A stretch of DNA of 31,886 nt from a virus. The position numbers were made by a program, and so were the translations under genes. The stretch spans positions 1 to 31,886 of the IMG/VR virus record IMGVR_UViG_3300045988_006552; one strand, written 5' to 3'. Numbering within the stretch: the stretch's first letter is position 1; every line of letters begins with the position of its first letter. The notes under the pieces were generated by a model that searched no databases, was not told the origin of the DNA, and saw only the letters and a program-made list of their open reading frames with translations. Positions 388 through 31,811 of the stretch are shown piece after piece.

Positions 388-428
388 TGTGATATATTTA
401 TTATATCATATTGTGTCTTGTGGTGCAA
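388..428 (-). promoter_or_regulatory. early promoter PA with 23-bp palindromic operator (tgtgatata-tttat-tatatcata, 388..410)
   Basis: On the minus strand: TTGCAC (428..423), 17-nt spacer, TGATATAAT extended -10 (-10 hexamer = 405..400). The palindrome overlaps the -10 and the predicted start site. Confidence 0.6.
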
Positions 429-455
429 ACAAAAAGGCCGGGACTCGCCCGGCCT
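426..455 (-). terminator. rho-independent terminator after the ParB-like gene
   Basis: 8-bp GC stem aggccggg/cccggcct (435..442 and 448..455) with a 5-nt loop, followed on the minus strand by TTTTTGTTTG. Confidence 0.6.
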
Positions 456-459
456 GTAA

Positions 460-1170
460 TCACTCTTCCTCGGCGTCCCTCCTTGCTATCTCGATGATCT
501 TGGATACCGCAGCGGCCATATTCTTGATTCCGTTACGTGAAGCGAACTCCGTCACCTGATGAACGAACTCGTCGTACAATTCCATAGGCACCAACCCGAG
601 CATGTCCGCGTTGCAATCATCCACGAACTGTTCAAGTTCCTCGTATTCGCGGGTCAGAAACAAAAACTCAACGGTCTTATATTCGTACTTCACATTCAAA
701 CCGTTCAGGTTGACCTGCTGCGGTTCCACATGTGGAAGATTATCCTGATCGAGTCCGCTCAACAACAAATCGTCCACGCTATCCATTTGCGTCACCAATT
801 GTGCCAACAGCTTTTCATCTGCATGGCCGGTGAGTTCGTTGGCGGCAATCTGCTTAGCCGTTATGGTTGAACGTGTCATAGGTTTCGTGTCCACGATAAC
901 CGGGATACGTTGGATACCGGCGCGGGCGGCAGCTCTTGTACGATGATGGCCGGAAACGATGCTTATCGGCCCTTCTCCGTTCGGTTGCGAACAGTACGGC
1001 AATGACTCCAGCATCCCTCGTAGCTTGATGTTCTGTGTCAGAGCGTCGAACTTACGCGGTTCCATGACTTGCGCGTTCAGGTCTTGTTCCTTGAGGTTTA
1101 CCACGTCAACCCATTTGATTACCAAACCGTCTGCTATGGTCATTTCTTGCGACGTGTCGATATCAGACAT
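460..1170 (-). CDS. ParB N-terminal (ParB/Srx nuclease-like) domain protein
   Basis: Motif ISIVSGHHRTRAAARAGIQRIPVIV. I chose the ATG at 1170 (RBS GGAGGA 5 nt upstream; TAATG overlap with the upstream gene) over the ORF-track start at 1239. Confidence 0.7.
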   Translation of the reverse strand: MSDIDTSQEMTIADGLVIKWVDVVNLKEQDLNAQVMEPRKFDALTQNIKLRGMLESLPYCSQPNGEGPISIVSGHHRTRAAARAGIQRIPVIVDTKPMTRSTITAKQIAANELTGHADEKLLAQLVTQMDSVDDLLLSGLDQDNLPHVEPQQVNLNGLNVKYEYKTVEFLFLTREYEELEQFVDDCNADMLGLVPMELYDEFVHQVTEFASRNGIKNMAAAVSKIIEIARRDAEEE

Positions 1171-2576
1171 TATTTCCTCCTGTTCTCCTTGGCTAGGAAC
1201 TGTCCGAGAATGTTCCTTAAGCCGATTTCGTCGTGCCAAGCGCTCTTATACTGCAATTGGTACTGTCCGTTCTTACGGTCGCGTCTGTCCAGCTTCATCA
1301 GGCCGCGAAGTCCCTTCGCTTCTGGGTATCGCGTGTACTCGACGGTTGCCAGCGCATCGCATGAATCGATGATGATCTGCGACTTTGGCGTAGCGCAGAG
1401 CTGGAACGTGGAACGACGTAACGCTATCATCGTGACCAGCTTCGTAAGCCGATACCGTTCGTGGGATACCCCGAACGCTTGACGCAATACCGCGTAGTGA
1501 CTCTTGTACATAAAGTTCGGCAAGCCATAGCCGATGATCCCTGCAACGTAACCGTCGATTAGTACGAGAACACACATGGGACTTACGTTTCCTGATATCC
1601 GATGCCGCATGACTTGCAGGTACGAATCTTGGGCCGCGCTATCGTGCAACGGTACGACCTCGATTTTAGAACGTTCGGTAATCGGATGATCTCTCGGTAA
1701 TATCGGTATAGGTATATCCGCCGATTTCGAAGACGCCACAGTCACCATGTTCCCGCCGACAAGACGTTTGACCTCGTTCGGACGGTTGGAATTCATGTAA
1801 ATCACACTGTCAAGCCCAAGACGCCTAGCATATACCGGGCTGGCCGTCGCAGCGTTCCCGGGCGTTTGCTGTTGCTGGCAGACAAGCAGCGCCTTACGTC
1901 CATCGAACATTTTGCAGAGCTTGGGGATATCGACGGGAGCGTTGAATACGTTGTATTCAGGTTCCGCCCATTGGAATCTACCACCGGTGTCGAAGAACTT
2001 TTCATAAGCGCCCGGATACGTAGGAGGATTTGCGAACACGATGGTGTTCGGGTCGTCCATGATGCGTTCCGCGTATTTCATCGGGTCGGTGGCCTCGTAT
2101 CTCAGCCCCTCAAGTCTGACCATATTCGCTGCGATTCGTTCCCGTAACTGTCCGACGTGTTCCGAATCGTTGATGTCAAGATCGGCCAGAAGTTCACGGT
2201 AGTAATCGACATCTTCGTGCTTGCTGAGCCGCATACGGTATTGCGCCATGATTACGGTAGCCGCATCGTCCGCCGCGTTTCCGGAGAGAGGTAGTGGTGC
2301 ATCGTCAACCGTCGCCTGCATTTCGGTGAGAGGCTTACCGCTGTACGCATATCCGAGCGCTGCGGTGTACGCCCACACGTCGCACGCTTCGATCTGTTCC
2401 GGTTTCCAGCCGTTCTCTATGGCGACCATGCAGTTTGCGAAGGCTCCGGCGTACAGTTCGACGTATCGCGTATACCCTGATGCGAGTGCCTGCCTGAACA
2501 GATTCCCGTTCCAATCGCGTTCGGGTTTATCCCAAGTGTTGAGGAACAGGATGGACGGTGAGTTGAAACCTGCCAT
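1170..2576 (-). CDS. putative Dam-like (alpha-class) DNA N6-adenine methyltransferase with an uncharacterised C-terminal region of about 200 aa
   Basis: N-terminal YVELYAGAFANCMV (motif I-like) and VFANPPTYPG (motif IV-like, non-canonical NPP-T-Y). The start is set at the ATG at 2576 because the longer ORF (to 2624) would run through the tRNA gene. Confidence 0.55.
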   Translation of the reverse strand: MAGFNSPSILFLNTWDKPERDWNGNLFRQALASGYTRYVELYAGAFANCMVAIENGWKPEQIEACDVWAYTAALGYAYSGKPLTEMQATVDDAPLPLSGNAADDAATVIMAQYRMRLSKHEDVDYYRELLADLDINDSEHVGQLRERIAANMVRLEGLRYEATDPMKYAERIMDDPNTIVFANPPTYPGAYEKFFDTGGRFQWAEPEYNVFNAPVDIPKLCKMFDGRKALLVCQQQQTPGNAATASPVYARRLGLDSVIYMNSNRPNEVKRLVGGNMVTVASSKSADIPIPILPRDHPITERSKIEVVPLHDSAAQDSYLQVMRHRISGNVSPMCVLVLIDGYVAGIIGYGLPNFMYKSHYAVLRQAFGVSHERYRLTKLVTMIALRRSTFQLCATPKSQIIIDSCDALATVEYTRYPEAKGLRGLMKLDRRDRKNGQYQLQYKSAWHDEIGLRNILGQFLAKENRRK

Positions 2577-2579
2577 CAG

Positions 2580-2652
2580 ACCGCCCCCCAAGAGTCGAAC
2601 TTGGTGCCTCCCTGTTCGAGACAAGGCGCTCTATCCGGTGAGCTAGGGGCGG
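2580..2652 (-). tRNA. tRNA, most simply read as tRNA-Arg(UCG), with an atypical C at position 33
   Basis: Hand-folded 73-nt cloverleaf. Acceptor CCGCCCC/GGGGCGG. D arm GCTC-ACCGGATA-GAGC. Anticodon arm CCTTG-TCTCGAA-CAGGG. Variable loop AGGCA. T arm CCAAG-TTCGACT-CTTGG. Discriminator T; no encoded CCA. Confidence 0.75.
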
Positions 2653-2660
2653 AACAGTTA

Positions 2661-3059
2661 TCAGAATAGCACATTTTGGTCGGCCTCCAAACCTTTTTGT
2701 AATTCCTTGACTTCTTCACCGGTCTTTTCCTGCCACCATTGGGCGAAAATCGTCCGGTGGCACAAGCATTTGCTTACGTCATCGAAGCATAGAAGCACGA
2801 TGTCTTTTCCGCTGTTGAGTTGCGATATTGTTTCAAGTTCCGTTCTGATGCGAGCGACCCCGTGCGAGTCCAGCATGGAACGATACCGTTCGGTGAATTC
2901 TTCGTCTGTTCCTTCCATGAACCATCGGCCCGGCGTTACTGTTTTCGCCGATGCTGCGATCGTGTATGGCAGACGCCATCGTGGCGAACCGTATGTTATG
3001 CGTACCGGTATGCCTTGTGCCGGGGTGAAGTCGCGGTATCGGTTTGTGTAGATCTTCAT
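2661..3059 (-). CDS. DUF488 family protein
   Basis: Pattern KIYT..YR....PV.IT.G.PRW.LPY...P..W, then IVLLCF.D...CHR..FA.WW.E.TGEEV.EL, typical of DUF488. Start at the ATG at 3059 (MKIYT). Confidence 0.6.
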   Translation of the reverse strand: MKIYTNRYRDFTPAQGIPVRITYGSPRWRLPYTIAASAKTVTPGRWFMEGTDEEFTERYRSMLDSHGVARIRTELETISQLNSGKDIVLLCFDDVSKCLCHRTIFAQWWQEKTGEEVKELQKGLEADQNVLF

Positions 3060-3080
3060 GTGTATCCTTTCTATGCAATG

Positions 3081-3122
3081 TGTGATATACATATTATATC
3101 ACATTGTTGGTTCTTGTTGCAA
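3081..3122 (-). promoter_or_regulatory. early promoter PB with 23-bp palindromic operator (tgtgatata-catat-tatatcaca, 3081..3103)
   Basis: On the minus strand: TTGCAA (3122..3117), 18-nt spacer, TGATATAAT (-10 = 3098..3093). It lies in the 3' end of the initiator gene. Confidence 0.6.
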
Positions 3123-4007
3123 ATTGACCCCATTCTTAACTTCGTCTGGAAAGAATTCCTTTTCCAGCGCCTCCACACCACCGGTGGCACCCCAATACGC
3201 ACGCCTCGCCCTCAGAACGGTCGACACATCAGCAGACATGGAATCAGGAAGCCTATTGGCCATCCAATGCGTTAACTGCGCTTCGCTCCGCTGCTCCTGC
3301 TTCTGGGCTCTCCAATTAATCGGGTTGGCCAGCCACACGGGGAGAGTCCGCACGTACTGCAATGGCGTACCCTCGCACGACTCCACGAAACGTTTCGCCG
3401 CCCTCATAAGCGCATCGGCACCAACCTCATCGAACGCCTGATTGAAATACCTGATGAATTCATTGGACACCCTGCACTTCTTCGGCCACAATCCCATAAG
3501 CGACTTGAGCGTATCCACTGAATGGCAGGCGACTGTTATTTTTTCTTCGCCGCGCGAGTATTGTTCTTGGGTTTTGTTCTCTTGGGTATTGTTAGTCAAA
3601 ACCTCGTTTTGGGGTAGGTCAAAAGCACGTTTTGAGGGGTCAAAAGCACGTTTTGAGGTCGAAACAGGGTCAAAAGCACGTTTTGAGGTCGAAACAGGGT
3701 CAAAAGCAGATTCCGGTGTCGGCTTCCACAGTGAGACGTGATACCGGTTGGCCCTGCCATCGGACTTGACCCGTCGAATGTAACCCAATTGCTCAAGCAC
3801 GTTGAGGCTCTTGGATACCGTGGGCTGTGAGCAACGCGCGATCTTCGCCAACCGCTCCAGACTGGGCCAACATACGCCGGTGTTGTCGGCGTGGCGTATC
3901 AGCGCCATGTACACCAGCAGGTCATAGCCGCCCAGCCGGTCATCGTCCACCGCCCAATTCGGCAGCATCGAAAAACCAGAGTTCTGTGCTATACTCGTAT
4001 CGGACAT
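3099..4007 (-). CDS. replication initiator / replisome organiser-like protein with an N-terminal winged HTH
   Basis: N-terminus LLVYMALIRHADNTGVCWPSLERLAKIARCSQPTVSKSLNVLEQLGYIRR, then a central repeat linker encoded by the iterons. ATG at 4007 has RBS AAGGTGG 5 nt upstream (the GTG at 4016 is an alternative). Confidence 0.55.
   Translation of the reverse strand: MSDTSIAQNSGFSMLPNWAVDDDRLGGYDLLVYMALIRHADNTGVCWPSLERLAKIARCSQPTVSKSLNVLEQLGYIRRVKSDGRANRYHVSLWKPTPESAFDPVSTSKRAFDPVSTSKRAFDPSKRAFDLPQNEVLTNNTQENKTQEQYSRGEEKITVACHSVDTLKSLMGLWPKKCRVSNEFIRYFNQAFDEVGADALMRAAKRFVESCEGTPLQYVRTLPVWLANPINWRAQKQEQRSEAQLTHWMANRLPDSMSADVSTVLRARRAYWGATGGVEALEKEFFPDEVKNGVNLQQEPTM
3595..3710. repeat. iteron array (putative origin of replication) inside the initiator gene
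   Basis: The exact 21-mer ggtcaaaagcacgttttgagg occurs at 3617..3637, 3638..3658 and 3668..3688. An identical 30-mer occurs at 3638..3667 and 3668..3697. A degenerate copy is at 3595..3614 and a partial copy at 3698..3708. Each unit has inverted arms TCAAAA-N5-TTTTGA. Confidence 0.6.
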
Positions 4008-4121
4008 ATTTTCCACCTTTCTGTTAGCGCCTTCCTTCAGTTCTCTAGGGGAGGCGCTTACTTTATTCCTGTTCCTATCTTATTGATGTCGGTGCGCACG
4101 ATTTCCAATGCTCATATATAT

Positions 4122-4150
4122 ATTATATAACTAGAACATGCTGCTTGCAA
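4122..4150 (-). promoter_or_regulatory. leftward promoter for the replication initiator gene
   Basis: On the minus strand: TTGCAA (4150..4145), 17 nt, TATAAT (4127..4122). This leaves a leader of about 100 nt to the ATG at 4007. Confidence 0.55.
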
Positions 4151-4173
4151 TCAAGAATAATCTGACGTATACT
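4145..4173 (+). promoter_or_regulatory. rightward promoter giving a leaderless HTH mRNA
   Basis: TTGCAA (4145..4150), 17 nt, TATACT (4168..4173). The ATG at 4180 lies 7 nt after the -10, and there is no room for an SD. Confidence 0.55.
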
Positions 4174-4179
4174 TGAATC

Positions 4180-4362
4180 ATGTACGCTAAAGACTACACC
4201 GCAACGACGGAACAGTACGCTGAACGCTGGCACCTCAACATCCAAACAGTCCGACGATACTGCCGCGAGAAACGACTGCCATACATCAAGGTAGGCAACC
4301 GCTACTACTTCAACCCCGACATCACACCACTACCAGTAGGAGAAACGATCAACGATGAATGA
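4180..4362 (+). CDS. excisionase-family / MerR-like HTH DNA-binding protein (60 aa)
   Basis: TTEQYAERWHLNIQTVRRYCREKRLPYIKVGNRYYF matches the HTH_17 pattern. Confidence 0.65.
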   Translation: MYAKDYTATTEQYAERWHLNIQTVRRYCREKRLPYIKVGNRYYFNPDITPLPVGETINDE

Positions 4363-4810
4363 CCCAAGAATCACGCTACCGCTCGCACGCTTGGCGGCAG
4401 ATCCAGAACGCAAACAGACCCGCAACGGCACCCAATACATGCTTATCCGAGTCGCCGCCACAGGCGGACACATGGACAAAGACACTAAACAGTGGGTGGA
4501 CCACGACACCATGTGGGCGACCATCTTCGAATATGACATGAGACTTGCCGAAACTTACGAACGCATGTTGCGCAAGGGTACACCGGTACATGTCGAGGGA
4601 GTCCTGAAATGGAAGACCGGCACCGACAATCATGGTCAGCCTCGCACCGATTTCATCATCGAACACGCGACCATCAGTCTGGCCATGCTCAAGGCGAAGA
4701 GCCAGCAGGCTCAGCAAGCCCAACAGTCCAGCAACCAATGGCAGGGAACAGACCCGTTCGGCCCGACCGACTCATCCAACCAGATCGACAACGAATGGAA
4801 AGAATTCTGA
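4355..4810 (+). CDS. ssb: single-stranded DNA-binding protein
   Basis: OB-fold N-terminus (ITLPLARLAADPERKQTRNGTQYMLIRVAA), a Q-rich linker and an acidic/aromatic tail DNEWKEF. Confidence 0.75.
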   Translation: MNDPRITLPLARLAADPERKQTRNGTQYMLIRVAATGGHMDKDTKQWVDHDTMWATIFEYDMRLAETYERMLRKGTPVHVEGVLKWKTGTDNHGQPRTDFIIEHATISLAMLKAKSQQAQQAQQSSNQWQGTDPFGPTDSSNQIDNEWKEF

Positions 4811-5091
4811 TGGCAATAAACATGACCGAGAAAGACAAGACGCTCAACGAGATTATCGACTGGTGCGAACAGATGGAAGCGGAAGGCTTGAGACTGGCGA
4901 GCGCTCTTCTGATGCAGCATGACACGGCAGCATACGGTGTCATGCAGGGACAAATCAACGCATACGAAAAGACGGCCGACCACTGCCGTTCCTTGCTCGT
5001 CTATTCCGTCTCAATGCCGTCCGAGATGCCGAATCAAAGCGAAGACGCGACGAAGAAACCGCACAGGCAGACGAAAAAGCCTGCGAATTAG
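4810..5091 (+). CDS. hypothetical protein (93 aa)
   Basis: The ATG overlaps the ssb stop (TGATG). It is an in-frame part of track ORF 4609..5091. Confidence 0.5.
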   Translation: MAINMTEKDKTLNEIIDWCEQMEAEGLRLASALLMQHDTAAYGVMQGQINAYEKTADHCRSLLVYSVSMPSEMPNQSEDATKKPHRQTKKPAN

Positions 5092-5116
5092 CCGACAAAC
5101 TCAACAAGGAGAAATC

Positions 5117-5299
5117 ATGAAACACGACGAACAGATAACCATGTACAGCTTGGAATCGGAAACCATGTGCAGCTTGGAATGGTTGGAACACGAACGCCGC
5201 AAGGCATGGCAGGAAGGTTACGCGGCCGGTTGGAAAGACCAGGAATGCGATTTTCCGCCACACACCACCGAAAACCCGTATAAGGAGTCCGTTGAATGA
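5117..5299 (+). CDS. hypothetical protein (60 aa)
   Basis: RBS AAGGAG at 5107..5112, then the ATG at 5117. In frame within track ORF 4919..5299. Confidence 0.5.
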   Translation: MKHDEQITMYSLESETMCSLEWLEHERRKAWQEGYAAGWKDQECDFPPHTTENPYKESVE

Positions 5300-5385
5300 A
5301 ACGCAACCCGTTTGAAATCCTGTTCGCGGTCACGTTGACCGTCTGCCTGTGCGTCGCCCCGATCATCATATTCGCAATCAGTTAA
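5296..5385 (+). CDS. possible small membrane peptide (29 aa, MKRNPFEILFAVTLTVCLCVAPIIIFAIS)
   Basis: ATGA overlap with the upstream stop and a single hydrophobic helix. It is below the ORF-track size cutoff. Confidence 0.3.
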   Translation: MKRNPFEILFAVTLTVCLCVAPIIIFAIS

Positions 5386-5445
5386 GGAACCGACCATCTC
5401 AAGACGGAAAACGCAACCAACATTCGACTTGGCGGAGGTCAACCA

Positions 5446-6068: not shown

Positions 6069-6096
6069 AGACGTCGAATACTACTAGGAGACCCCA

Positions 6097-6756
6097 GTGA
6101 ACACTGAAATACAACAGTTCTACTTCCATAACGCTGCATTGCGTACCCTGACCGACGAAGCAGGGGAGCCTTGGTCCGTCGCCAAGGACGTGTGCGACAT
6201 CCTCGGCCACTCAAACGTGAGCATGGCGCTTGATCGTCTCGATGATGACGAACGGCCTAAGTTCAAATTAGGGCGTCAAGGTGAGACCAACATCGTCAAC
6301 GAAGCCGGTCTCTACAGCCTCGTGCTCGGATCCCGCAAGCCTGAGGCCCACGAGCTCAAACGTTGGGTGACTCACGAGGAGCTGCCGTCCATCCGCAAGC
6401 ATGGCGCATACATGACCCAGCAGACTCTAAACAAGGCACTCACCAGCCCAGACTTCCTTATCCAGCTCGCCACCAAGTCGAAAGAGGAACAGGAGAAAGT
6501 CAAGGAACTGGAACCGAAAACACGGTTCGCCGACGCAGTGGCCACGTCGGACGGCACCCGCCTGATCGGAAAACTGGCGAAGATGCCGCGCCAGAACGGT
6601 TTGGACATCGGCCAGAACCGCCTTCTCGAGATTCCCCGACATGACGGCTACTTGGGTAAGACCGGCTCGAACCGCAACATGCCAACACAACGCGCGATGG
6701 ACTTGGGACGTTCCGAATCAAGGAAACCGCCATCACCCATTCGGACGGCCACGTGA
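6097..6756 (+). CDS. Bro-N / KilAC phage antirepressor, apparently frameshifted near 6711
   Basis: GTG start with RBS AGGAG. Bro-N motifs (FHNAALRTL..GEPWSVAKDVCDILGH) and KilAC motifs (NMPTQRAMDLG). The conserved KilAC C-terminus FRIKETAITHSDGHVTINRTAKVTGKGQTYFINRY is read in the -1 frame at 6711..6845. Confidence 0.7.
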   Translation: MNTEIQQFYFHNAALRTLTDEAGEPWSVAKDVCDILGHSNVSMALDRLDDDERPKFKLGRQGETNIVNEAGLYSLVLGSRKPEAHELKRWVTHEELPSIRKHGAYMTQQTLNKALTSPDFLIQLATKSKEEQEKVKELEPKTRFADAVATSDGTRLIGKLAKMPRQNGLDIGQNRLLEIPRHDGYLGKTGSNRNMPTQRAMDLGRSESRKPPSPIRTAT

Positions 6757-6854
6757 CCATCAACCGCACCGCGAAAGTAACCGGCAAAGGCCAGACATAC
6801 TTCATCAACCGCTACTGCACACAAACTAAACCCAAGAAAGCATAAAATACCCTT

Positions 6855-14397: not shown

Positions 14398-14826
14398 ATG
14401 ATTGATCTGGCCATGTGCATGACCCTACAAAACGAGGGTTTCGGCACTTACGGCAAAACACTGTTCTTCGGCACTAGTCCCGTATTGGACACTGGTAGCG
14501 TCACGAACGCCGAGGGAATCTGGGTTAACGCGAACACCGTGGACATCAACGGCGACCTATACACCGACCAGCTCACAGTCAGCAGCCGATACTTCGACGT
14601 GATCGAACAAGGGCGTCTGATGCTCCGACTCCTGCACTTCATTAACAATCGTCTGCATGACTATTGCCGACTCACCTGCAACCCCATTGCTGATATTGAC
14701 TTTGTATCAATCCGCGTGCATCCGGCGACCGCGATAGACATGGACGCCATCGACGGTGAAGGGCGCTGGGTGAAAAGCATCCGATTCAATATTGATTACA
14801 AGCTCCCCATCGAAACGGTAGAATAG
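14398..14826 (+). CDS. tail terminator / minor capsid-like protein (putative)
   Basis: Sits directly upstream of the major tail gene. RBS TAGGAG. Confidence 0.4.
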   Translation: MIDLAMCMTLQNEGFGTYGKTLFFGTSPVLDTGSVTNAEGIWVNANTVDINGDLYTDQLTVSSRYFDVIEQGRLMLRLLHFINNRLHDYCRLTCNPIADIDFVSIRVHPATAIDMDAIDGEGRWVKSIRFNIDYKLPIETVE

Positions 14827-26374: not shown

Positions 26375-26377
26375 CCA

Positions 26378-26803
26378 ATGTTTGAAACCGTACAGACCAT
26401 CATCAACGGAGGCGATTATAACCTCACAGACCTCATCCAGCGCATCAAGACCCTGTATGCGATTGGCGAGCTGTCTGATGATGAGATGAAGCAGCTCCTC
26501 GAACAGGCGCAGGCGAACGCCAAGCCCGACGATTCCTACGCCCCGTTGGCCGACCGTGTGAAGGCAATCGAGGAATGGGAGACGACAATCGAGGAACGTT
26601 TAAGCAAGCTGGAAACCGGCTCATCGACTGAACCCACGGAACCAACAGACAAGTGGCCGGAATACAAGCAGCCGACGGGCGCGCACGACGCCTATCATGT
26701 GGGAGACAAAATCACTTACAACGGCAAACACTATACGTGCTTGATGGACGGTTGCGTGTGGACTCCAGACGCTTACCCGCAGGGATGGCGTGAGGAAGCA
26801 TAA
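26378..26803 (+). CDS. hypothetical protein with a C-terminal CBM5/12-like carbohydrate-binding motif
   Basis: C-terminal WPEYKQPTGAHDAYHVGDKITYNGKHYTCLMDGCVWTPDAYPQGW. RBS AAGGAG upstream. Confidence 0.5.
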   Translation: MFETVQTIINGGDYNLTDLIQRIKTLYAIGELSDDEMKQLLEQAQANAKPDDSYAPLADRVKAIEEWETTIEERLSKLETGSSTEPTEPTDKWPEYKQPTGAHDAYHVGDKITYNGKHYTCLMDGCVWTPDAYPQGWREEA

Positions 26804-26880
26804 GCCACATCTACACTGGTGTTTCCCAGTGGTAGACTGGTGTTGCTCCTTTCGAGCGATGGTGTGATGACCAAATGAAT

Positions 26881-26931
26881 TAGCCCGGCACTGGTCTTGA
26901 TGACTAGTGCCGGGCTATTCTTTCTTTTTTT
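26881..26931 (+). terminator. rho-independent terminator at the convergence of the late (+) and early (-) blocks
   Basis: tagcccggcactggtc - ttgat - gactagtgccgggcta, a 16-bp stem with one G-U pair, followed by ttctttcttttttt. Confidence 0.75.
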
Positions 26932-27260
26932 CAGTTGCTCAAGATGAAGTTTCGATTTCGGTATTCGCTGAATACTGGAACTTCCTCTGGGTGATCGTTG
27001 TAGGCGCTGACCAGCCAACCCTTCTCGTATGATTCTTTGGGGTGGGCGTGGATACGCCCGTGGCATCCCATAGTACCCGACCCGCATACGGTAATCAGGT
27101 TGCTGGGCAGGTTCAGCCCTTCCCAAGCGTGGGAGCGCATACGCCGGTGATGCAGGTTGAACGCGGATGAGCTTAACGTTCTCCCGCAGATGAAGCATCT
27201 GCCGTGGTCACGGTTGAACACCTTCATACGGGTTTCGATGTCAGGATCGGTTTTGCTCAT
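26931..27260 (-). CDS. HNH endonuclease
   Basis: CFICGRTL...FNLHHRRMRS....NLITVCGSGTMGCHGRIHAHP. Confidence 0.8.
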   Translation of the reverse strand: MSKTDPDIETRMKVFNRDHGRCFICGRTLSSSAFNLHHRRMRSHAWEGLNLPSNLITVCGSGTMGCHGRIHAHPKESYEKGWLVSAYNDHPEEVPVFSEYRNRNFILSN

Positions 27261-27549
27261 TGAATACTCCCGTGCAGTGGAAGAAATACAGATTAATTGG
27301 AGCGACCAGACTGAACGTGTATTGTTTCGTATTCTTGAATTCTATTTCGCGTATTGGCGTGGTTTCCACTCCTTCGATGCTGTTGAGGATTTCGTGGACT
27401 CGTAGGAGCGAGTCGGGGTCTTTGAAGCCTATCTGTCCGAACGTGAGTTCTTGCCCGAGTCCTTGGTTGTCGATGATTCTTTGGAGTTCCGGTTTCTTCA
27501 GTAGGAGGTTGATGATCGAGGTCAGGTAGTGGACGGTGTCGTTTTCCAT
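27241..27549 (-). CDS. hypothetical protein (102 aa), visibly more AT-rich than its neighbours
   Basis: RBS AAGGAG 4 nt upstream of the ATG at 27549. Overlaps the HNH start by 20 nt. Confidence 0.55.
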   Translation of the reverse strand: MENDTVHYLTSIINLLLKKPELQRIIDNQGLGQELTFGQIGFKDPDSLLRVHEILNSIEGVETTPIREIEFKNTKQYTFSLVAPINLYFFHCTGVFNEQNRS

Positions 27550-27590
27550 TGTTGCTCCTTTGGTGTGATGATGATTGGACTGACTGTCTT

Positions 27591-27920
27591 CTAGTCTTTG
27601 GTTAGGATGTCATAGCCGAGGTGTTCGGCCAACCGCAACCGGTATTGTTTCTGTGGTTTGCGGCGTCCGTTTTCCCACATGGCTATGACGTTCGGACTGG
27701 CGACGCCGATTCGTTCGGCTAGTTCCGATTGTGAGTATCCGTGGCGTAGCCTCCAGTATTTGATGCACTGGCCGATGGTTACTCGGTCGCTGATGGTCTC
27801 GTAGTCAATGAGGATGTTGCCGATGTTCTGTCGGGTGAAGAACTGGCCTGTCTGGCTGTCCTGTTCCACGGTGACTTCTTGACCGTTGATTACTGTCTTG
27901 ATCTTGTTTAGCTTGCGCAT
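27591..27920 (-). CDS. XRE-family HTH regulator with an N-terminal extension of about 45 aa
   Basis: IGQCIKYWRLRHGYSQSELAERIGVASPNVIAMWENGRRKP. RBS GGGAGG. It is the first gene behind promoter PC. Confidence 0.75.
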   Translation of the reverse strand: MRKLNKIKTVINGQEVTVEQDSQTGQFFTRQNIGNILIDYETISDRVTIGQCIKYWRLRHGYSQSELAERIGVASPNVIAMWENGRRKPQKQYRLRLAEHLGYDILTKD

Positions 27921-27934
27921 GTTTTACCTCCCTA

Positions 27935-27975
27935 TGTGATATATAAATTATATCACATTGTTTGTGTTTCGCCAA
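27935..27975 (-). promoter_or_regulatory. early promoter PC with 23-bp palindromic operator (tgtgatata-taaat-tatatcaca, 27935..27957)
   Basis: On the minus strand: TTGGCG (27975..27970), 17 nt, TGATATAAT (-10 = 27952..27947). Confidence 0.6.
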
Positions 27976-28231
27976 ACAGCTCACTAATGGCTTCACGCCC
28001 GGCGTCGGTCAACGCGAACCGCCAGCAATGACGATGCCGACTGTTCACACCCTCACGATCGACACGGCACACATGACCGGAGCGCTCAAGCTCGATCATG
28101 CGCGACCTCAAGCCCTGCGGAGTGTCGTCATACTTCGCTAAGACCGCCATCCGTTCGATTTCCTCGTGGGTCAGCGGTCGTTTCGCCATCCAAAGAATCA
28201 GCAGCACATGCACCTGTTGTTCGCTGAACAT
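27953..28231 (-). CDS. winged-helix (MarR/PadR-like) DNA-binding protein
   Basis: LILWMAKRPLTHEEIERMA....LRSRMIELERSGHVCRV. TAATG overlap with the upstream gene. Confidence 0.5.
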   Translation of the reverse strand: MFSEQQVHVLLILWMAKRPLTHEEIERMAVLAKYDDTPQGLRSRMIELERSGHVCRVDREGVNSRHRHCWRFALTDAGREAISELFGETQTM

Positions 28232-28596
28232 TACGCCACCGCCGTTTCAGCGGAGTGGCGGAGGAACGCGGCCACGCCAGCAGCCACGATCCACCCGGCA
28301 ACCCACTTGATTCCGAACCGTACCCTGTTGATCTTGGCTGCCATCGCCCACACCGGAAGCGACACCCACGGGCTAAGACACCAGCCACAGTAGGCGAGTT
28401 CGCCAAGACTATCCACGTAATCCTTCGCCCATGTTGGCAGCGAACTTGGAAGATTTTCGGTCTTTACGGTCAGCTTGTGGCGGAACGCTGAGAACACGTA
28501 GCCGGGGCCGGGCGAGAGCTGCACGACGGTGGTCGCGTATCCAGCCGTGATTCCAGCGGAAAGCACCGCGGTCCACCAATTGCCATCAGTTTTCAT
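28231..28596 (-). CDS. membrane protein (DUF1360-like)
   Basis: ELAYCGWCLSPWVSLPVWAMA motif plus flanking hydrophobic segments. Confidence 0.5.
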   Translation of the reverse strand: MKTDGNWWTAVLSAGITAGYATTVVQLSPGPGYVFSAFRHKLTVKTENLPSSLPTWAKDYVDSLGELAYCGWCLSPWVSLPVWAMAAKINRVRFGIKWVAGWIVAAGVAAFLRHSAETAVA

Positions 28597-28925
28597 CGGT
28601 CTTCCTTTTCCTTGTGGCGACGCCAGCAGTTATACCGCTTGTCATAATCCGCGTACATGGTTTCGTAAAGATGCTTTGCCTCTTTGGTGGCTTCCTCGTA
28701 TTCAAACCCGTGGTGTTCCAAGACGTATTGCGCGGCACCGACCCAGACGGAGCGGCGAACGTGTTGATACCAGCGGTCGAACAGTTTGCCACACGTCTTG
28801 TCGTGTTTGTCGTCTCCGAGGAAGTCGGCAACGCTCTCCACCACGAATGTACGCAACGAGTTCACCGTGATACGGTTACGGTCGAACAGCTCCAGCACAT
28901 CATTGGTCAAAGTATCAGGCTTCAT
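28593..28925 (-). CDS. hypothetical protein (110 aa)
   Basis: ORF track; overlapping start and stop signals with both neighbours. Confidence 0.55.
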   Translation of the reverse strand: MKPDTLTNDVLELFDRNRITVNSLRTFVVESVADFLGDDKHDKTCGKLFDRWYQHVRRSVWVGAAQYVLEHHGFEYEEATKEAKHLYETMYADYDKRYNCWRRHKEKEDR

Positions 28926-29236
28926 CAGTTTCCTCCTCTTTTTTCGGTGTCTTCATCGACTAGATAATCGGCTAGGCTGATGTCTTGCGGCTGCAAGTAG
29001 ATCAATCCGTCCAGCAAGATCATCGGATAACGCACGGTTACTTCTTGGTCTTTGGCGATGGTGCGTATCGCTCTGGCGGTGGGGCTCCCCGACGGCACGA
29101 TACGGAGCCTCCGACCCGTCTGCTGTGCGTACACGCGGCACGCCATCAGATAACCGGCGTCCTGCCACTTGCACGTCGGGCACCCGTCAAACAGTACGAA
29201 CATGTCATGGCTTTCGAGAATCGTTGCGGTCTTCAT
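28925..29236 (-). CDS. glutaredoxin/thioredoxin-fold protein (CPTC motif)
   Basis: FVLFDGCPTCKW ... RYPMILLDG pattern. Confidence 0.45.
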   Translation of the reverse strand: MKTATILESHDMFVLFDGCPTCKWQDAGYLMACRVYAQQTGRRLRIVPSGSPTARAIRTIAKDQEVTVRYPMILLDGLIYLQPQDISLADYLVDEDTEKRGGN

Positions 29237-30144
29237 CAGAACGTCACTCCCAGAGCGTCGGCCAGAACATCGGAGATATGGAGCGTGGCTAACTGGCGAC
29301 TCTTATGCTCCGCGATCTGTTCGGTGATGTCCTTGCGGTACACGGGGATGACCTGATGGCGTGCGTCTCCGGCCACGCGCGGGTCGTACATCGAGAAATA
29401 CAGGACGTCCAGCGAATCGCACACGACGAAGTATTGGAGTACCTGCGCCTTGTACTGGTCGGGGATGAAGTCGAAACCGGTCGCCTTGCTATCGAGCGTG
29501 TATTCCGGAAGAATCTGCTCAATAACGTCCACGAGTTCAGGTTTCAGGTTGGCGACGTGGGTTCGCATGGCGTCGGTGTGCATCATCCACGGTACGACGG
29601 CCTGCAAGTGGTAGGCGGAGCCGATCGACTTGCATTCGATGGCCCACGTCGGCTTCTCGCTGTTCTCGTAGGCGTCTGGACTGCACGCGATACGGTCGTC
29701 ATCCTCGCTCTCCCAGATACCGCAGTCAGTGACGCAACTACCAGAGTCGAAGCCGAGTGCGCGAAGCGTGATCTGGATGTTCTCGGGTTCGAGACGGTGG
29801 CCGCGTTCCATCGGCGGTTCACCGTCCGCTGGTTCGGCCCCCAGTTCCGCGAGGAACTTCCAGAAGTCCACACCGACCTTCATCCGCTTGTTCTTCGCTT
29901 CGGCGTCCACGATCTTCTCGTCGTAGTTCTGAGCCTTCGCGTAATACTCATTGGCCTTGTCAGGCGTCTTAGCCTTCTTCGCCTGTTCCAACGCCTTGTC
30001 ACGATACTCTTTGAGTTTCGCCACGTCGGTCTGTGCGTAGTGTTCCAATGCGAGTCCTCCGCTTTTAGTGCCGGTGATACGGCCCATACGTTCGTCGAGC
30101 CATGCTTCGGTTTCGGTGGCTTGCGATACATTGATGATCTTCAT
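29236..30144 (-). CDS. YqaJ-like (lambda Exo-type, PD-(D/E)xK) recombination exonuclease
   Basis: EAWLDERMGRITGTKSG ... ACSPDAY ... WAIECKS. ATG at 30144 with RBS AAAGGA (the track start is 30204). Confidence 0.75.
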   Translation of the reverse strand: MKIINVSQATETEAWLDERMGRITGTKSGGLALEHYAQTDVAKLKEYRDKALEQAKKAKTPDKANEYYAKAQNYDEKIVDAEAKNKRMKVGVDFWKFLAELGAEPADGEPPMERGHRLEPENIQITLRALGFDSGSCVTDCGIWESEDDDRIACSPDAYENSEKPTWAIECKSIGSAYHLQAVVPWMMHTDAMRTHVANLKPELVDVIEQILPEYTLDSKATGFDFIPDQYKAQVLQYFVVCDSLDVLYFSMYDPRVAGDARHQVIPVYRKDITEQIAEHKSRQLATLHISDVLADALGVTF

Positions 30145-30353
30145 TGTGGTTGTCCTTTCTGTTGGGTGTGGGCGGGTGATGAGTCCCGCCCAACCCAATT
30201 CCACGACAGAATGGTGTATGTAAACGCCGTGGCGGATTTATTGTTTGTCGATATTCAGTTATGGTTCCCTCCAGTCGACATGGTGAACGTGGATGTCCTC
30301 GAAAACGTCCCAATTGGTTTGTTTTGTTGGACTGTCGGCTGGCGGGAAGTCTT

Positions 30354-30578
30354 TTAGTCGCGTGGGGCGAACCGCACGATCAGCCATAGGCCGGTCAACA
30401 GGTAGATGACGCTCACAAGGACGGTGGCCGTCTGCGAGTCCGCCGTCCGCCACGTGAACAGCAGGGTCATGCTGCTCACGAATCCGATGATGGCGGCTGC
30501 GAACTTCAGACGGCGGAGCGTGTAGTTCGGCTTCGTTGCTTCAGGTTTGCTGTCGTGGTTGTTCTTCTGTTGATTCAT
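30354..30578 (-). CDS. small membrane protein
   Basis: Two hydrophobic segments. ATG at 30578 with RBS GGAGGA 6 nt upstream (the track start is 30605). Confidence 0.45.
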   Translation of the reverse strand: MNQQKNNHDSKPEATKPNYTLRRLKFAAAIIGFVSSMTLLFTWRTADSQTATVLVSVIYLLTGLWLIVRFAPRD

Positions 30579-30606
30579 TTCAGATCCTCCAATTCCTTGG
30601 TTCATT

Positions 30607-31200
30607 TCACATTCGGTTGATGGCGTTCATCAGATTCCGGAAATCGGTTTGGGTGAGTCCACGCCATCCCCTGACCTGACGGTTCAGAGTGCCGTTGATG
30701 AACTCGCCGCGCGCCTCGGACGGTATGTTGTGGACGTCCATCACCTTGACCAGCTCGGCATACTGTTCGGAGCTGATGGTACGGTCGGCAGTATCGTAAC
30801 GCTGTTTCGCATACGCGCCGTCGTCGTCCTTGTCGGGGAAGATGCCCAATACCGCGTAGAGACTGTAGCGGCGTGCGTAGGTGATCGCGCTGCCGACCTG
30901 CTGGGGGTCGCCGGTCACGAAGAACGGGTAGGAGCAGGCCACCATCTGTTCTTCATCGTCGAAGATGATGGTTTCTACTGTTCCGATGACCTGTCGCGCT
31001 TCTCCAGTGTTGTCGAACGTGACGCGCTGGCTGAATGCCAGTCCGTGCTTCTCGAAAACCGGTTTGATGGTTTTGAGGATCGTGGCGAGGTTGAGGTATT
31101 TGTAAGTCTTTTTGCCTGCCTGTGCGGTTTCGTCGGTGACGAAGTTGGGGACTTCGTTGAGGACTTTCATGAACTTGTTGCTGAGGTTGTTGGTTGCCAT
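30607..31200 (-). CDS. Erf-family single-strand annealing protein
   Basis: KKTYKYLNLATILKTIKPVFEKHGLAFSQ ... GSAITYARRYSLYAVLGI. Confidence 0.8.
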   Translation of the reverse strand: MATNNLSNKFMKVLNEVPNFVTDETAQAGKKTYKYLNLATILKTIKPVFEKHGLAFSQRVTFDNTGEARQVIGTVETIIFDDEEQMVACSYPFFVTGDPQQVGSAITYARRYSLYAVLGIFPDKDDDGAYAKQRYDTADRTISSEQYAELVKVMDVHNIPSEARGEFINGTLNRQVRGWRGLTQTDFRNLMNAINRM

Positions 31201-31240
31201 CTCAATGTTCCTTTCTGATAGTGTGATGACATATAAGGTA

Positions 31241-31263
31241 CCTCGCGGCTGCTGGCCGCGAGG
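31241..31263 (-). other. intergenic GC stem-loop between the first early gene and erf
   Basis: cctcgcggc - tgctg - gccgcgagg, 9-bp stem. No clear T tract. Confidence 0.35.
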
Positions 31264-31272
31264 CGAGTGTGA

Positions 31273-31734
31273 TTACTTGAGTTTGTGGACTAGGACCCTC
31301 ACATGGAGGCACTGGATGTTGTATCCTCCCGCGAAAATGCTCTTGATCGAGAAGCGGCCTTTGGGTCCGGAGATGATGCCGTTGATTCTTCCATCGGGGC
31401 CGATGTAGGTCCACTCGACTTCATCTATGCCTCCGGCCTTGGCGTTGCAACGGTCGATGATGTCGGCCTTCTTGCAGGCTGCTTCCTTGTCGAGGAACGT
31501 GGCGAACTTTACGGGGTCGTAAACGGAGTCGTATCCATGTTCTACGACTATCTTGCCATAGGCGCTTTTAAGGTCGGCCTGAGCCTCAAGCTTGCCATAG
31601 CTGTCGAGCTCGGGATCGTGCCAGATGGCTCCACGCTTTTCCTTGTACTGCTTGTAGAGGGCCGGGACTTGTTCGATGATGTTGGCTTTCCAGTTGTCAA
31701 GCAGTTGGTCGATGGGTTTCAGGTTGTTGTTCAT
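31273..31734 (-). CDS. hypothetical protein (153 aa), first gene behind promoter PD
   Basis: RBS AAGGAGG. ORF track. Confidence 0.6.
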   Translation of the reverse strand: MNNNLKPIDQLLDNWKANIIEQVPALYKQYKEKRGAIWHDPELDSYGKLEAQADLKSAYGKIVVEHGYDSVYDPVKFATFLDKEAACKKADIIDRCNAKAGGIDEVEWTYIGPDGRINGIISGPKGRFSIKSIFAGGYNIQCLHVRVLVHKLK

Positions 31735-31770
31735 TGTGGACCTCCTTGGGGTATAAGATCAGGCTGTTTG

Positions 31771-31811
31771 CCTGATATATCCATTATATCACATGTTGTG
31801 TGATATTACAA
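31771..31811 (-). promoter_or_regulatory. early promoter PD with 23-bp operator (cctgatata-tccat-tatatcaca, 31771..31793)
   Basis: On the minus strand: TTGTAA (31811..31806), 17 nt, TGATATAAT (-10 = 31788..31783). Confidence 0.55.

Follow-up and report, generated by a model that had tools for sequence, protein, structure and literature searches.

A conserved dyad in four predicted early promoters of a small gut phage is a candidate operator for an XRE-family repressor

Genome organization and early gene block

The window analysed here is the whole 31,886-nucleotide virus record IMGVR_UViG_3300045988_006552. As bases 1-55 are identical to bases 31832-31886, the window represents a circular genome of 31,831 bp. 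The source is a small gut siphophage, probably with a Bifidobacterium host. No integrase gene was found in this 31.8-kb phage, and neither a phage RNA polymerase nor a ParA-type ATPase was seen among the scanned open reading frames. Because the genome is circular, the five predicted leftward promoters (P_L1 to P_L5) all lie in one leftward gene block of approximately 9 kb. A rightward promoter, P_R, precedes a unit containing the genes for the HTH_17 protein, single-stranded DNA-binding protein (SSB), RusA and terminase together with structural and lysis genes. Features are listed in Table 1. P_L5 overlaps the stop codon of the 92-aa gene, and the terminator between P_L2 and P_L3 is kept in relatives (clusters 4, 6 and 9).

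Table 1. Predicted promoters, regulators and associated elements of the early region
Feature	Positions	Strand	Description
P_L2 promoter-operator	3081..3103	-	Core 3083-3101; -10 at 3098-3093; -35 TTGCAA at 3122-3117; TTGCAA-18-TATAAT; perfect palindrome; precedes DUF488 gene, tRNA-Arg, DAM-like/GNAT gene and ParB_N gene
P_L3 promoter-operator	388..410	-	Core 390-408; -10 at 405-400; -35 TTGCAC at 428-423; TTGCAC-17-TATAAT; TGA before -10; precedes 119-aa gene (360-1)
P_L4 promoter-operator	31771..31793	-	Core 31773-31791; -10 at 31788-31783; -35 TTGTAA at 31811-31806; TTGTAA-17-TATAAT; precedes 153-aa gene, ERF, YqaJ exonuclease and genes beyond
P_L5 promoter-operator	27935..27957	-	Core 27937-27955; -10 TATAAT at 27952-27947; -35 TTGGCG at 27975-27970; TTGGCG-17-TATAAT; perfect 9-5-9 palindrome; precedes XRE gene
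P_L1, replication-initiator (HTH_36) promoter	4112..4150	-	TTGCAA-17-TATAAT-ATA-TATATGA; -35 to -10 at 4150-4122; TTA before -10
P_R, rightward promoter	4145..4173	+	TTGCAA-17-TATACT; without dyad
Intrinsic terminator	435..455	-	Ends P_L2 transcription unit; immediately upstream of P_L3 -35
Hairpin AUCAGGC-AAACA-GCCUGAU	31758..31776	-	Predicted 5' end of P_L4 transcript
XRE-family protein, 109 aa	27591..27920	-	N-terminal extension of ~50 aa; C-terminal HTH_3
92-aa protein, possible winged-helix	27953..28231	-	Pfam matches sub-threshold only
HTH_17 protein, 60 aa	4180..4362	+	First gene of rightward operon
ParB_N gene	460-1239		Weak ParB_N match

Four predicted promoters share an exact 6-7-6 dyad

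An earlier note on this DNA had described a palindrome with 9-bp arms and a 5-bp centre at four sites, each within a near-consensus extended -10 promoter facing minus-strand genes. Scanning the window for TGTGATATA-N5-TATATCACA with up to three mismatches returned exactly these four sites (one mismatch at 388-410, none at 3081-3103 or 27935-27957, and two at 31771-31793), compared with no matches in 100 dinucleotide-preserving shuffles. TGnTATAAT boxes likewise numbered four against 0.30 expected, and the four sites account for all of them. The 9-5-9 description itself required revision, as the mismatches fall in the outermost 2 bp and the conserved dyad is TGATAT-N7-ATATCA (6-7-6), without a mismatch in any copy.

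The promoter assignment was borne out by the surrounding sequence: -35 boxes lie 17-18 nt upstream of all four -10 boxes, and a Shine-Dalgarno sequence and ATG of a minus-strand gene follow 20-50 nt downstream of each site. Among the sigma-70-type sites of both early regions, these four score highest (10 of 12 matches). The TGTG upstream is most simply read as the Gram-positive -16 'TRTG' promoter motif, and TGTGnTATAAT equals the Gram-positive -16/-10 consensus. The extended -10 element (TGn plus TAT) itself serves as the left arm of the dyad, and a mirror image of it, the right arm, falls at about -2 to +4 of the predicted start. This position supports the earlier proposal that a dimer on the dyad would cover both the -10 box and the start site. 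TATA within both arms is self-complementary and of low complexity, which leaves TG(A)...(T)CA as the only informative symmetric positions.

At several sites, bases that form a 5' RNA hairpin take the place of the right arm's outer CA. The hairpin predicted for P_L4 (-11.9 kcal/mol, z = -2.1) takes up the last right-arm bases, which explains the two apparent mismatches of this copy; in relatives the same stem position shows A-U, G.U and G-C variants.

P_L1 and P_R lack the specificity bases

The divergent region at 4122..4173 had been said to lack the palindrome and to imply a second control point. The first statement holds for the specificity bases, which are absent here and in 57 relatives (TGA...TCA determinants at P_L1, 0/57). 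It does not hold for the element as a whole: a degenerate copy is present at 4122-4150, with an AT-rich resemblance to the dyad and without the G/C positions of either arm. As the specificity bases are missing, separate control of this region is reasonable. P_R and P_L1 have a palindromic -35 hexamer in common, and both are good promoters without the right arm, also in the 57 relatives. The HTH_17 start codon lies 6 nt past the P_R -10 box, and this mRNA is therefore predicted to be leaderless; BlindBasel1, a phage described below, has the same leaderless rightward arrangement.

Conservation of the dyad among close relatives

The suggested motif scan of genome and relatives showed conservation of the dyad, with three to six such promoters, all co-oriented with genes, in each of more than 70 related phage genomes of approximately 31 kb. 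Across 67 viral loci, the orientation of every site at a locus matched that of the genes, and TATATCA followed exactly 3 nt downstream in 86 of 95 unique TGnTATAAT contexts. When regions upstream of the XRE gene were anchored on the gene start, the TATATCA right arm was kept in 56 of 61 unique sequences, and the -10 hexamer in these regions drifts (TATGAT, TAGAAT, TATTAT). P_L2-type upstream regions retained the exact core in 37 of 40 unique sequences. Per-column diversity at orthologous sites was 0.006 in the right arm and 0.035 in the left arm, against 0.24 in the centre, 0.20 in the spacer and 0.31 in the leader, although these close relatives share 83-97% protein identity and much of the conservation thus reflects common ancestry.

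The right arm was invariant at sites with and without a hairpin. As it lies in the transcript, and at some sites in the 5' hairpin, part of its conservation may act through RNA. The -35 box and a CA-rich spacer are partly conserved too. Overall, the comparison supports the view that the dyad is conserved more than promoter function would require.

A compensated dyad in bee-gut phages and its apparent transfer to an unrelated phage

The bee-gut Bifidobacterium phages BlindBasel1 and BlindUri1 (62% TerL identity to the window phage) and the 35.6-kb relatives L381 and L382 carry TGTTAT-N7-ATAACA in the same 6-7-6 register, with three copies in each Blind phage and four to five near-perfect copies in L381 and L382. 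Only the n of TGn is free to vary in the left arm; it has changed between the lineages, and the right arm shows the matching complementary change. This compensatory change, which is one evolutionary contrast only, argues for a factor that reads the dyad as a dyad.

In the window phage and the bee lineages alike, the early block has near its end, ahead of an HNH gene, a gene for an XRE protein whose HTH_3 domain is C-terminal and preceded by an N-terminal extension. Each class has its own recognition helix, SPNVIAMWENG in the window family and xQAIRYWESG in the bee type. Identity between the two XRE clades is 36% over 50 residues, a level generic for HTH_3 domains, so the case for orthology is built on synteny and domain layout. 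No palindromic promoter was found for the BlindBasel1 XRE gene itself.

A 112-kb phage contig, L383 (42% GC), encodes an XRE protein 70% identical to that of the Blind phages among different flanking genes. This gene adjoins a single perfect TGTTATGCTGATAATAACA promoter, predicted to drive a homologue of a Blind gene that itself lies behind such a site. The XRE gene and operator promoter thus appear to have been acquired together by an unrelated phage, which again argues for a dyad-reading factor. A 121-aa protein travels with XRE in L383 and could be the real partner.

The XRE protein as the candidate repressor

Three proteins encoded in the window had been put forward as binders, and the comparison favours one of them. 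The XRE protein matched Pfam HTH_3 with 44.7 bits (cut-off 23), its PHROG families are those of repressors or regulators, and its nearest solved structures are SinR and the 434-type dimeric repressors. It is the best candidate for an operator-binding repressor.

We propose, with somewhat better than even confidence in the whole, that the four sites are early promoters of the host sigma-A type and that their dyad is the operator of a dimeric, autoregulated XRE repressor that shuts off early genes together. A phage-encoded dimeric helix-turn-helix repressor, likeliest the XRE protein, would bind TGATAT-N7-ATATCA, cover the -10 box and start site, and so exclude RNA polymerase. Four leftward units would be switched off together: DUF488/tRNA/DAM-GNAT/ParB_N, the 119-aa gene, ERF/exonuclease and XRE/HNH. 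As the XRE gene lies directly behind a perfect copy, negative autoregulation is proposed. P_L1 and P_R, without the operator, would escape repression. We infer the start positions, protein binding, repression and timing in this scheme from the observed sequence anatomy and its conservation, the compensatory change between lineages and the occurrence of the XRE gene together with the operator.

Alternative explanations

The dyad may be a real operator with a different binder, namely the 92-aa protein, the HTH_17 protein, another small early protein or a host Bifidobacterium factor. We regard this as unlikely. The 92-aa and HTH_17 genes are present in every window-family member checked, but the former has no bee-phage homologue, none being detected even at E < 0.1 in four lineages with the same architecture, and its Pfam matches are sub-threshold. 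The HTH_17 protein (Pfam 32.1 bits, cut-off 27) is 28.6% identical to an ORF of BlindBasel1, which is again predicted to be leaderless and has ATAACA-N11-TGTTAT in its promoter. Against this, its weak resemblance is to lambda Xis and not to a dimer that binds palindromes, and no HTH_17 homologue occurs within 20 kb around the L383 cassette. Lambda Xis-type proteins typically bind direct repeats. That the operator is nearly identical across lineages could fit a conserved host protein, but this would leave the lineage-specific A/T versus T/A change unexplained, and the motif was in no related bacterial locus among the matches listed.

It is also rather doubtful that no dedicated regulator exists and that a strong-promoter cassette has spread, or been maintained, in the early block with the palindrome as a TATA-rich by-product. 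The -16/-10 consensus match, the self-complementary TATA and the partly conserved -35 and spacer fit such a cassette, as does an unrelated Firmicutes prophage fragment that holds two copies of the same 19-bp core. The right arm also spans the predicted +1, and at several sites it supplies the 5' side of an RNA hairpin; however, it is invariant with or without the hairpin, and bee-type leaders show no such hairpin. Moreover, two lineages show it as the reverse complement of the left arm at 6/6 positions, with compensation at the free base, and the element moves with the XRE gene into an unrelated phage. Good promoters that have no right arm also exist, namely P_L1 and P_R in all relatives examined.

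A function as nucleic-acid structure, either an RNA hairpin in transcripts reading through from promoters upstream (processing, stability or attenuation) or a DNA cruciform or hairpin, seems very improbable. Perfect copies do fold as RNA (-8.5 to -9.8 kcal/mol, z down to -5.9), read-through is possible as three sites lie inside a co-directional block, and the compensatory change fits base pairing as well. However, the terminator before P_L3 leaves little read-through there, the 6-bp stem that all sites have in common is weak and AU-rich, the dyad is not followed by a U-tract, and this model leaves unexplained why the dyad is in exact register with the -10 box. The lack of a phage RNA polymerase among the scanned open reading frames argues against an N4-type hairpin promoter.

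Finally, the palindromes could scarcely be dispersed parS-like centromere or silencing sites for the ParB_N protein, as in the plasmid-prophage N15: the weak ParB_N match (24.8 bits, cut-off 26.3), the several dispersed palindromes and the missing integrase would suit this, but the gene belongs to a mobile DNA-modification module with DAM-like/GNAT, no ParA-type ATPase was seen among the scanned open reading frames, and this reading is effectively refuted by L260 and L261, which carry five to six sites but lack the ParB_N/DAM-GNAT/DUF488 module, their contiguous early region being free of a ParB_N gene.

Comparison with known systems

Read as the operator of the XRE protein, the four-promoter dyad would be a clean, well-conserved example of a familiar type of phage switch. 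It resembles the operators of lambdoid, 434 and P22 Cro/CI and of SinR/Xre in that the HTH_3 candidate is nearest SinR and 434, the dyad lies over the -10 box and start site, one operator sequence serves several promoters, and the regulator gene stands behind its own site, suggesting autoregulation. Unlike in Cro/CI systems, there is no integrase, no divergent CI/Cro pair and no tandem OR1-3 array; a single site is found per promoter, spread over about 9 kb, and its left half-site is the extended -10 element. The candidate lacks a C-terminal dimerisation or peptidase domain and has about 50 additional residues at its N terminus instead.

The temperate Streptomyces phage phiC31 has conserved inverted repeats at many of its early promoters, to which the c repressor binds; these promoters are not sigma-70-like. 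The likeness is that of an actinobacterial phage with one palindromic operator at many early promoters and a one-repressor regulon. The phiC31 repressor is of a different family. The operator here is built from the sigma-A -10 element itself. CRP/FNR-type sites (TGTGA-N6-TCACA) have identical outer pentamers, but the pentamers are 13 bp apart here versus 6 bp, many sites do not keep the outer CA, and a position over the -10 box and +1 misfits activation.

The stoperators of mycobacteriophage L5 and Cluster A are asymmetric 13-14 bp sites, largely outside promoters, for a monomeric two-domain repressor (PMC9283540). They are similar (PMC9283540, PMC6550527) in placing many copies of a repressor site across co-directional units of an actinobacteriophage, and a repressor bound at internal sites could likewise block elongation here; our sites differ in being symmetric and each a promoter. 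Cluster O mycobacteriophages contain a 17-bp dyad, TGTTCGG-N3-CCGAACA, in more than 30 copies, many inside genes and with no consistent relation to promoters or orientation, and their genomes also have divergent SigA-like promoters with leaderless mRNAs and a ParB-like gene (PMC4351075). That repeat shares with the present one an invariant inverted repeat (7 bp in Cluster O) around a variable centre, repeated through the genome, but the four to six copies found here are all promoters and have one orientation.

Putative promoter-operators of the early block

An earlier note had described one palindrome with 9-bp arms and a 5-bp centre (9-5-9) at four places in the window, each within a near-consensus extended -10 promoter. 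We scanned the window for TGTGATATA-N5-TATATCACA, allowing up to three mismatches, and recovered exactly these four copies (P_L2 to P_L5 in the Table). The pattern was matched in none of 100 dinucleotide-preserving shuffles of the window. Moreover, the window holds four TGnTATAAT boxes, all at these sites, compared with 0.30 expected. On both counts the four-site observation is confirmed and is far beyond chance. Read on the minus strand, each site consists of a -35 hexamer of the form TTGNNN, a 17-18 bp spacer (within the usual 17±1 bp), TG-A-TATAAT, three variable bases and TATATCA, with a Shine-Dalgarno sequence and ATG 20-50 nt downstream. The promoter assignment was thus upheld for all four. 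In a consensus scan, the best minus-strand promoter matches were these sites and P_L1, the promoter of the HTH_36 gene, each agreeing at 10 of 12 hexamer positions. The sites are oriented as their downstream genes, consistently across more than 60 viral loci.

Table. Positions of promoters, candidate regulators and associated features
Feature	Position	Strand	Details
P_L3 promoter-operator	388-410 (TGATAT start 408)	-	1 mismatch to 9-5-9; -35 TTGCAC; spacer 17
P_L2 promoter-operator	3081-3103 (TGATAT start 3101)	-	0 mismatches; -35 TTGCAA; spacer 18
P_L5 promoter-operator	27935-27957 (TGATAT start 27955)	-	0 mismatches; -35 TTGGCG; spacer 17
P_L4 promoter-operator	31771-31793 (TGATAT start 31791)	-	2 mismatches; -35 TTGTAA; spacer 17
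P_L1 promoter	4150-4122	-	before initiator gene; TTGCAA-17-TATAAT-ATA-TATATGA, preceded by TTA
P_R promoter	4145-4173	+	TTGCAA-17-TATACT
HTH_17 gene	4180-4362	+
XRE gene	27591-27920	-	109-aa candidate repressor
92-aa protein gene	27953-28231	-	winged-helix-like candidate
Iterons	3593-3721		five, ~21-30 bp (GGTCAAAAGCACGTTTTGAGG); inside HTH_36 gene (3099-4007, minus strand)
HNH endonuclease gene	26931-27260	-	50% identical to unannotated BlindBasel1 ORF
Terminator	26881-26917		16-bp stem; between HNH gene and convergent CBM_5_12-domain gene (26378-26803, plus strand)
Island in 112 kb contig L383	9430-10414		palindromic promoter, 121-aa gene, terminator, XRE gene; homologous to parts of bee Bifidobacterium phages

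Genome organization and probable host

Bases 1-55 are identical to bases 31832-31886, and the window is therefore circularly closed, with a genome of 31,831 bp. The early block occupies the minus strand from 4007 down past position 1 and then from 31831 to 26931. It encodes, in order, the HTH_36 protein, DUF488, tRNA-Arg, DAM-like/GNAT, ParB_N, and 119-aa and 153-aa proteins, followed by ERF, a YqaJ exonuclease, several small proteins, the 92-aa protein, XRE and the HNH endonuclease. The 119-aa gene (360-1, minus strand) ends where the P_L4 promoter region begins. On the plus strand, 4180 to approximately 26800 encodes HTH_17, SSB, RusA, a Bro-N/ANT protein, large terminase, portal, capsid protein, tape measure, Dit, a GH25+LysM endolysin and a CBM_5_12-domain protein. 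At the end of the early block, a longer ORF (26773-27198) overlaps the HNH gene; we rejected it as the real gene. The HTH_36 protein is probably a replication initiator with its own origin, marked by iterons, inside its gene; the lambda O gene likewise has the origin embedded in it.

The nearest isolates were the Bifidobacterium phages BlindBasel1 and BlindUri1 of the bee gut (62% identity in the large terminase), and the nearest named endolysin homologue was from an uncultured Bifidobacterium (59% identity). Because both are linked to Bifidobacterium, this genus is probably the host.

The genes at 460-3059 together with the 119-aa gene, all on the minus strand, form a probable DNA-modification module of DUF488-N3a, DAM-like-phage1 plus GNAT-phage-like and ParB_N (sub-threshold) proteins; the 119-aa protein has a weak TAGT-like match. 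L382, a 35.6 kb relative that ends before any DUF488 position, carries the DAM-like/GNAT and ParB_N genes, and the more diverged L260 and L261 lack the module entirely, indicating that it is mobile. tRNA-Arg(TCG) at 2579-2652 was called by ARAGORN and went unreported by Rfam at the gathering score; Rfam returned no matches in either the window or BlindBasel1. In BlindBasel1, approximately 600 bp (28500-29090) between an HTH_17-like ORF and the ERF promoter carry no annotated gene and no Rfam match.

The antirepressor-like Bro-N + KilAC (ANT) gene at 6097-6756 was essentially absent from about 70 relatives (one 40% match) and hence appears to be an acquired accessory. In two relatives, TnpB/IS605 (Cas12f-like) genes adjoin the XRE end of the early block (L256, 13627-20276; L259, 1058-1435), followed in L256 by a DivIVA-domain gene. 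Such an arrangement may have arisen by insertion or through chimeric assembly, or it may represent an integrated form. The larger contigs L232 and L256 were checked for an integrated form, and no clear attachment site was found in either; they show either a joint to the terminase and portal of another phage or the TnpB/IS605 copies and DivIVA gene.

Conservation in related phages

A scan of related phages had been named beforehand as a check, and the motif proved to be kept: 67 viral loci matched the 9-5-9 pattern, most of them from contigs of ~30-32 kb encoding proteins 83-97% identical to those of the window. Loci carried up to six copies, nearly all oriented as the genes. When sites were chosen on TGnTATAAT alone, an exact TATATCA lay 3 nt downstream in 86 of 95 unique contexts. 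Eight of the other nine had more than one mismatch to the right arm, in AT-rich surroundings that are apparently unrelated.

We also picked upstream regions by gene start, without use of the motif. TATATCA was kept in 56 of 61 unique regions upstream of XRE genes. The -10 hexamer drifts in these regions (TATGAT, TAGAAT, TATTAT and others), and in two variants the promoter is missing altogether. At the DUF488 site, the exact core was kept in 37 of 40 regions. Across orthologous sites, column diversity was 0.006 for the right arm and 0.035 for the left, and it rose to 0.20 in the spacer, 0.24 in the centre (three bases) and 0.31 in the leader, a contrast owed in part to the way sites were selected. 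In this evolutionarily shallow close family, conservation is stronger in the right arm than in the -10 hexamer.

Wider searches yielded little beyond the close family. A nucleotide search of GenBank phages found no close relative (one 245-bp match), and a search of them with the XRE protein found no match. Homologues of the window XRE came from the close family only (at least 75% identity), besides fragments and one frameshifted copy, and an exonuclease-profile search of viral contigs gave 69 loci, all of the close family. In genome contigs, a 21-bp form of the motif occurred in at least 120 stretches, mostly single matches in Clostridia; none of the stretches among the matches listed encodes any window protein, so no prophage or host information was gained. 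Nothing was found in the literature on this phage group or motif.

A side observation concerns L317, a fragment of an unrelated prophage of low GC that encodes an integrase, a CI-like repressor and a RelE-like toxin. It holds two copies of the 19-bp core TGATATAAT-NNN-TATATCA (2405-2423 and 2925-2943) with identical downstream leaders, which may have arisen by chance or may reflect a promoter type of wider occurrence.

A shorter dyad with compensatory change

The symmetric element is real, but its invariant part is shorter than the 9-5-9 dyad first proposed. The outer CA of the right arm becomes AAG, ATC or AGG at several orthologous sites, and the diverged L260 and L261 restrict the invariant part to 6-7-6, TGATAT-N7-ATATCA, which all four window copies match without mismatch. 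The upstream TGTG matches the Gram-positive -16 promoter motif ('TRTG') and needs no further explanation. The two apparent mismatches of the P_L4 copy fall within a hairpin, AUCAGGC-AAACA-GCCUGAU, that runs from the predicted +1 (31776-31758; -11.9 kcal/mol). One stem position is A-U, G.U or G-C in relatives, which argues for pairing at the RNA level. Hairpins at the predicted +1 of several sites indirectly support a transcription start 6-8 nt downstream of the -10 box, inside the right arm.

The same geometry and register were found in the bee-type lineages. BlindBasel1 and BlindUri1 each have three early promoters with TTGACA or TTGCAA, a 17-bp spacer and TGT-TATACT-GATG-ATAACA, and two 35.6 kb relatives, found via the Blind XRE homologue P0041, hold four to five copies of TTGACT-17-TGTTATAATGATAATAACA. 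Here, too, the left arm is the TGn and TAT of the extended -10. Promoter consensus leaves a single left-arm base free, the n of TGn. The window family has A at this base and T at its right-arm partner, and the bee-type lineages have T and A, respectively. A generic pattern, TGNTATAATNNNTATANCA, was also run on viral contigs as a complementarity test of this base pair, and among the matches listed chance ones in AT-rich phages dominate.

The right arm is the exact reverse complement of the left arm in both lineages and has changed in a compensatory manner (a single contrast between lineages), which is not expected of a plain promoter. Together with the conservation of the right arm, this shows the dyad to be conserved beyond promoter needs. 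The symmetry points to recognition by a dimeric protein; a nucleic-acid stem is less likely. A sigma-dependent pause element, for which the right arm would be read as a -10-like TATATC, was rejected: T-7 is missing from this hexamer, and the right arm of the bee type does not resemble a -10 box. We also rejected a second, opposite-strand promoter, because the bottom-strand hexamers (TATATA, TATACA, TATATC) miss the final T at most sites and because it would point into the top-strand promoter. An N4-type hairpin promoter, where a phage RNA polymerase recognises an extruded hairpin with a 5-7 bp stem and 3 nt loop, does not fit: the window loop is 5-7 nt and no RNA polymerase domain was found among the scanned ORFs.

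A fifth near-match to the 6-7-6 core (TGATATTGACTTTGTATCA, one mismatch) lies at 14691-14709 inside a late structural gene, without a -10 box, and is identical in L052, the sole relative covering the region. This match may have arisen by chance, or it may act as a lone operator or roadblock.

Candidate binding proteins

Three binders had been put forward: XRE, the 92-aa protein and HTH_17. Synteny and co-transfer favour XRE, and the other two are less supported. The XRE protein matches Pfam HTH_3 at 44.7 bits (cut-off 23; residues 53-105) and is nearest to SinR and 434-type repressors, which are dimeric palindrome binders. A perfect copy of the dyad immediately precedes its gene. The gene was found in the window family, in L260 and L261, in BlindBasel1 (3509-3922) and BlindUri1 (as a homologue), and in L381-L383, the last three having been retrieved through their XRE homologues. 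This co-occurrence suggests a link between XRE and the sites. The layout, an N-terminal extension and C-terminal HTH_3, and the position, near the end of the early block and followed by the HNH gene, are alike in all lineages. Synteny and domain layout are the grounds for taking the two XRE clades as orthologous; over the HTH region they share 36% identity, and their recognition helices differ by class.

L383, a 112 kb phage contig of 42% GC with different flanking genes, is the most informative case. Its XRE is 70% identical to the Blind protein, and a single perfect TGTTATGCTGATAATAACA promoter lies ~550 bp upstream of the XRE gene. This promoter drives a 121-aa gene whose product is 67% identical to that of BlindBasel1 gene 2, itself behind a palindromic promoter. 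Regulator, operator-promoter and target gene therefore seem to have travelled as a unit, suggesting horizontal transfer of a regulator-operator-target cassette; the 121-aa protein accompanies XRE and may instead be the partner of the site.

The 92-aa protein has sub-threshold family matches only, and no homologue was found in bee-type loci. HTH_17 is 28.6% identical to its BlindBasel1 counterpart and bears a weak likeness to lambda Xis. ParB_N was excluded as binder because L260 and L261 keep five to six sites without the entire DUF488/DAM-GNAT/ParB_N module. ParB/parS partition or silencing sites were rejected likewise, the ParB_N match in the window also being below the gathering score.

Proposed mode of action and comparison with known systems

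The functional steps that follow are all inferred. Upon infection, host sigma-A RNA polymerase would fire all leftward promoters. XRE would build up from P_L5, with read-through from P_L4, and dimerise; the dimer on TGATAT-N7-ATATCA, covering about -15 to +4, would exclude polymerase. The DNA-modification, recombination and regulator units would then be shut off, and XRE would limit its own synthesis. The model predicts that the replication initiator gene and the rightward operon, which continues into the late genes, escape repression and remain on. At internal sites, the repressor could also roadblock elongation. The overlap of the site with the -10 box and +1 argues against activation.

XRE repressors of the Cro/CI and SinR class act on promoter-overlapping operators, and we propose that this one works alike. 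The regulon logic resembles that of the conserved inverted repeats of phiC31. The 17-bp dyads of Cluster O phages have no link to promoters (PMC4351075), whereas each window site is a promoter. PMC9283540 describes L5 stoperators as asymmetric 13-14 bp sites for a monomeric repressor, largely outside promoters; the window sites are symmetric and every one coincides with a promoter, so we rejected that type. A temperate-phage immunity system of CI and integrase, which calls for a divergent repressor/Cro pair as well, was rejected, as no integrase family was found in any large ORF scanned and the sole divergent pair is HTH_36/HTH_17. A CRP site needs TGTGA-N6-TCACA and was rejected on spacing, which is N13 in the window. 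The window system stands apart in having the extended -10 element as one of its half-sites.

The system is solid, widely conserved and unsurprising in principle, and it leaves the understanding of phage regulation in principle unaltered. For the abundant, uncultivated gut phages of ~31 kb, the model yields a predicted map of five leftward promoters, of which four share one operator, with one candidate repressor. Two operator classes occur naturally, A/T and T/A, each matched by a separate XRE clade, and would permit an operator/repressor swap. The promoter-operator (~45 bp) and 109-aa candidate repressor could be used for regulated expression in Bifidobacterium, where such parts are scarce.

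We consider rather improbable the broader reading that Bifidobacterium phages have, in XRE and its 'mirror-image -10' operator, a regulatory cassette that is portable and tunable by lineage. One half-site of the repressor would be the extended -10 (TGnTAT), with a reversed copy at the start site, and lineage specificity would be set essentially by the free base and its partner, A/T in the human-gut family versus T/A in the bee-gut lineages. If true, the two classes would define distinct regulatory (immunity-like) groups, and L383 suggests that transfer of the cassette between unrelated phages could also occur.

Promoters without the putative operator

The divergent region between HTH_36 and HTH_17 had been proposed as a separate control point. 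This is reasonable, since neither arm of P_L1 has its G and C positions, in the window or in any of 57 relatives, but the region is not wholly element-free. P_L1 and P_R stand back to back and have in common a palindromic -35 hexamer, TTGCAA (4145-4150). The HTH_17 ATG lies 6 nt after the P_R -10 box, and the mRNA is therefore predicted to be leaderless. This arrangement (4145-4182) is conserved in 57 relatives and in BlindBasel1.

In the HTH_36 5' UTR (~4030-4066, minus strand), just upstream of the Shine-Dalgarno sequence, we observed a conserved hairpin, AGCGCCTCCCC...GGGAGGCGCT, with seemingly compensatory variants in relatives (GCGCCTTCC/GGAAGGCGC and GCGCCTCCC/GGGAGGCGC). This hairpin may control the initiator gene at the level of translation or by attenuation.
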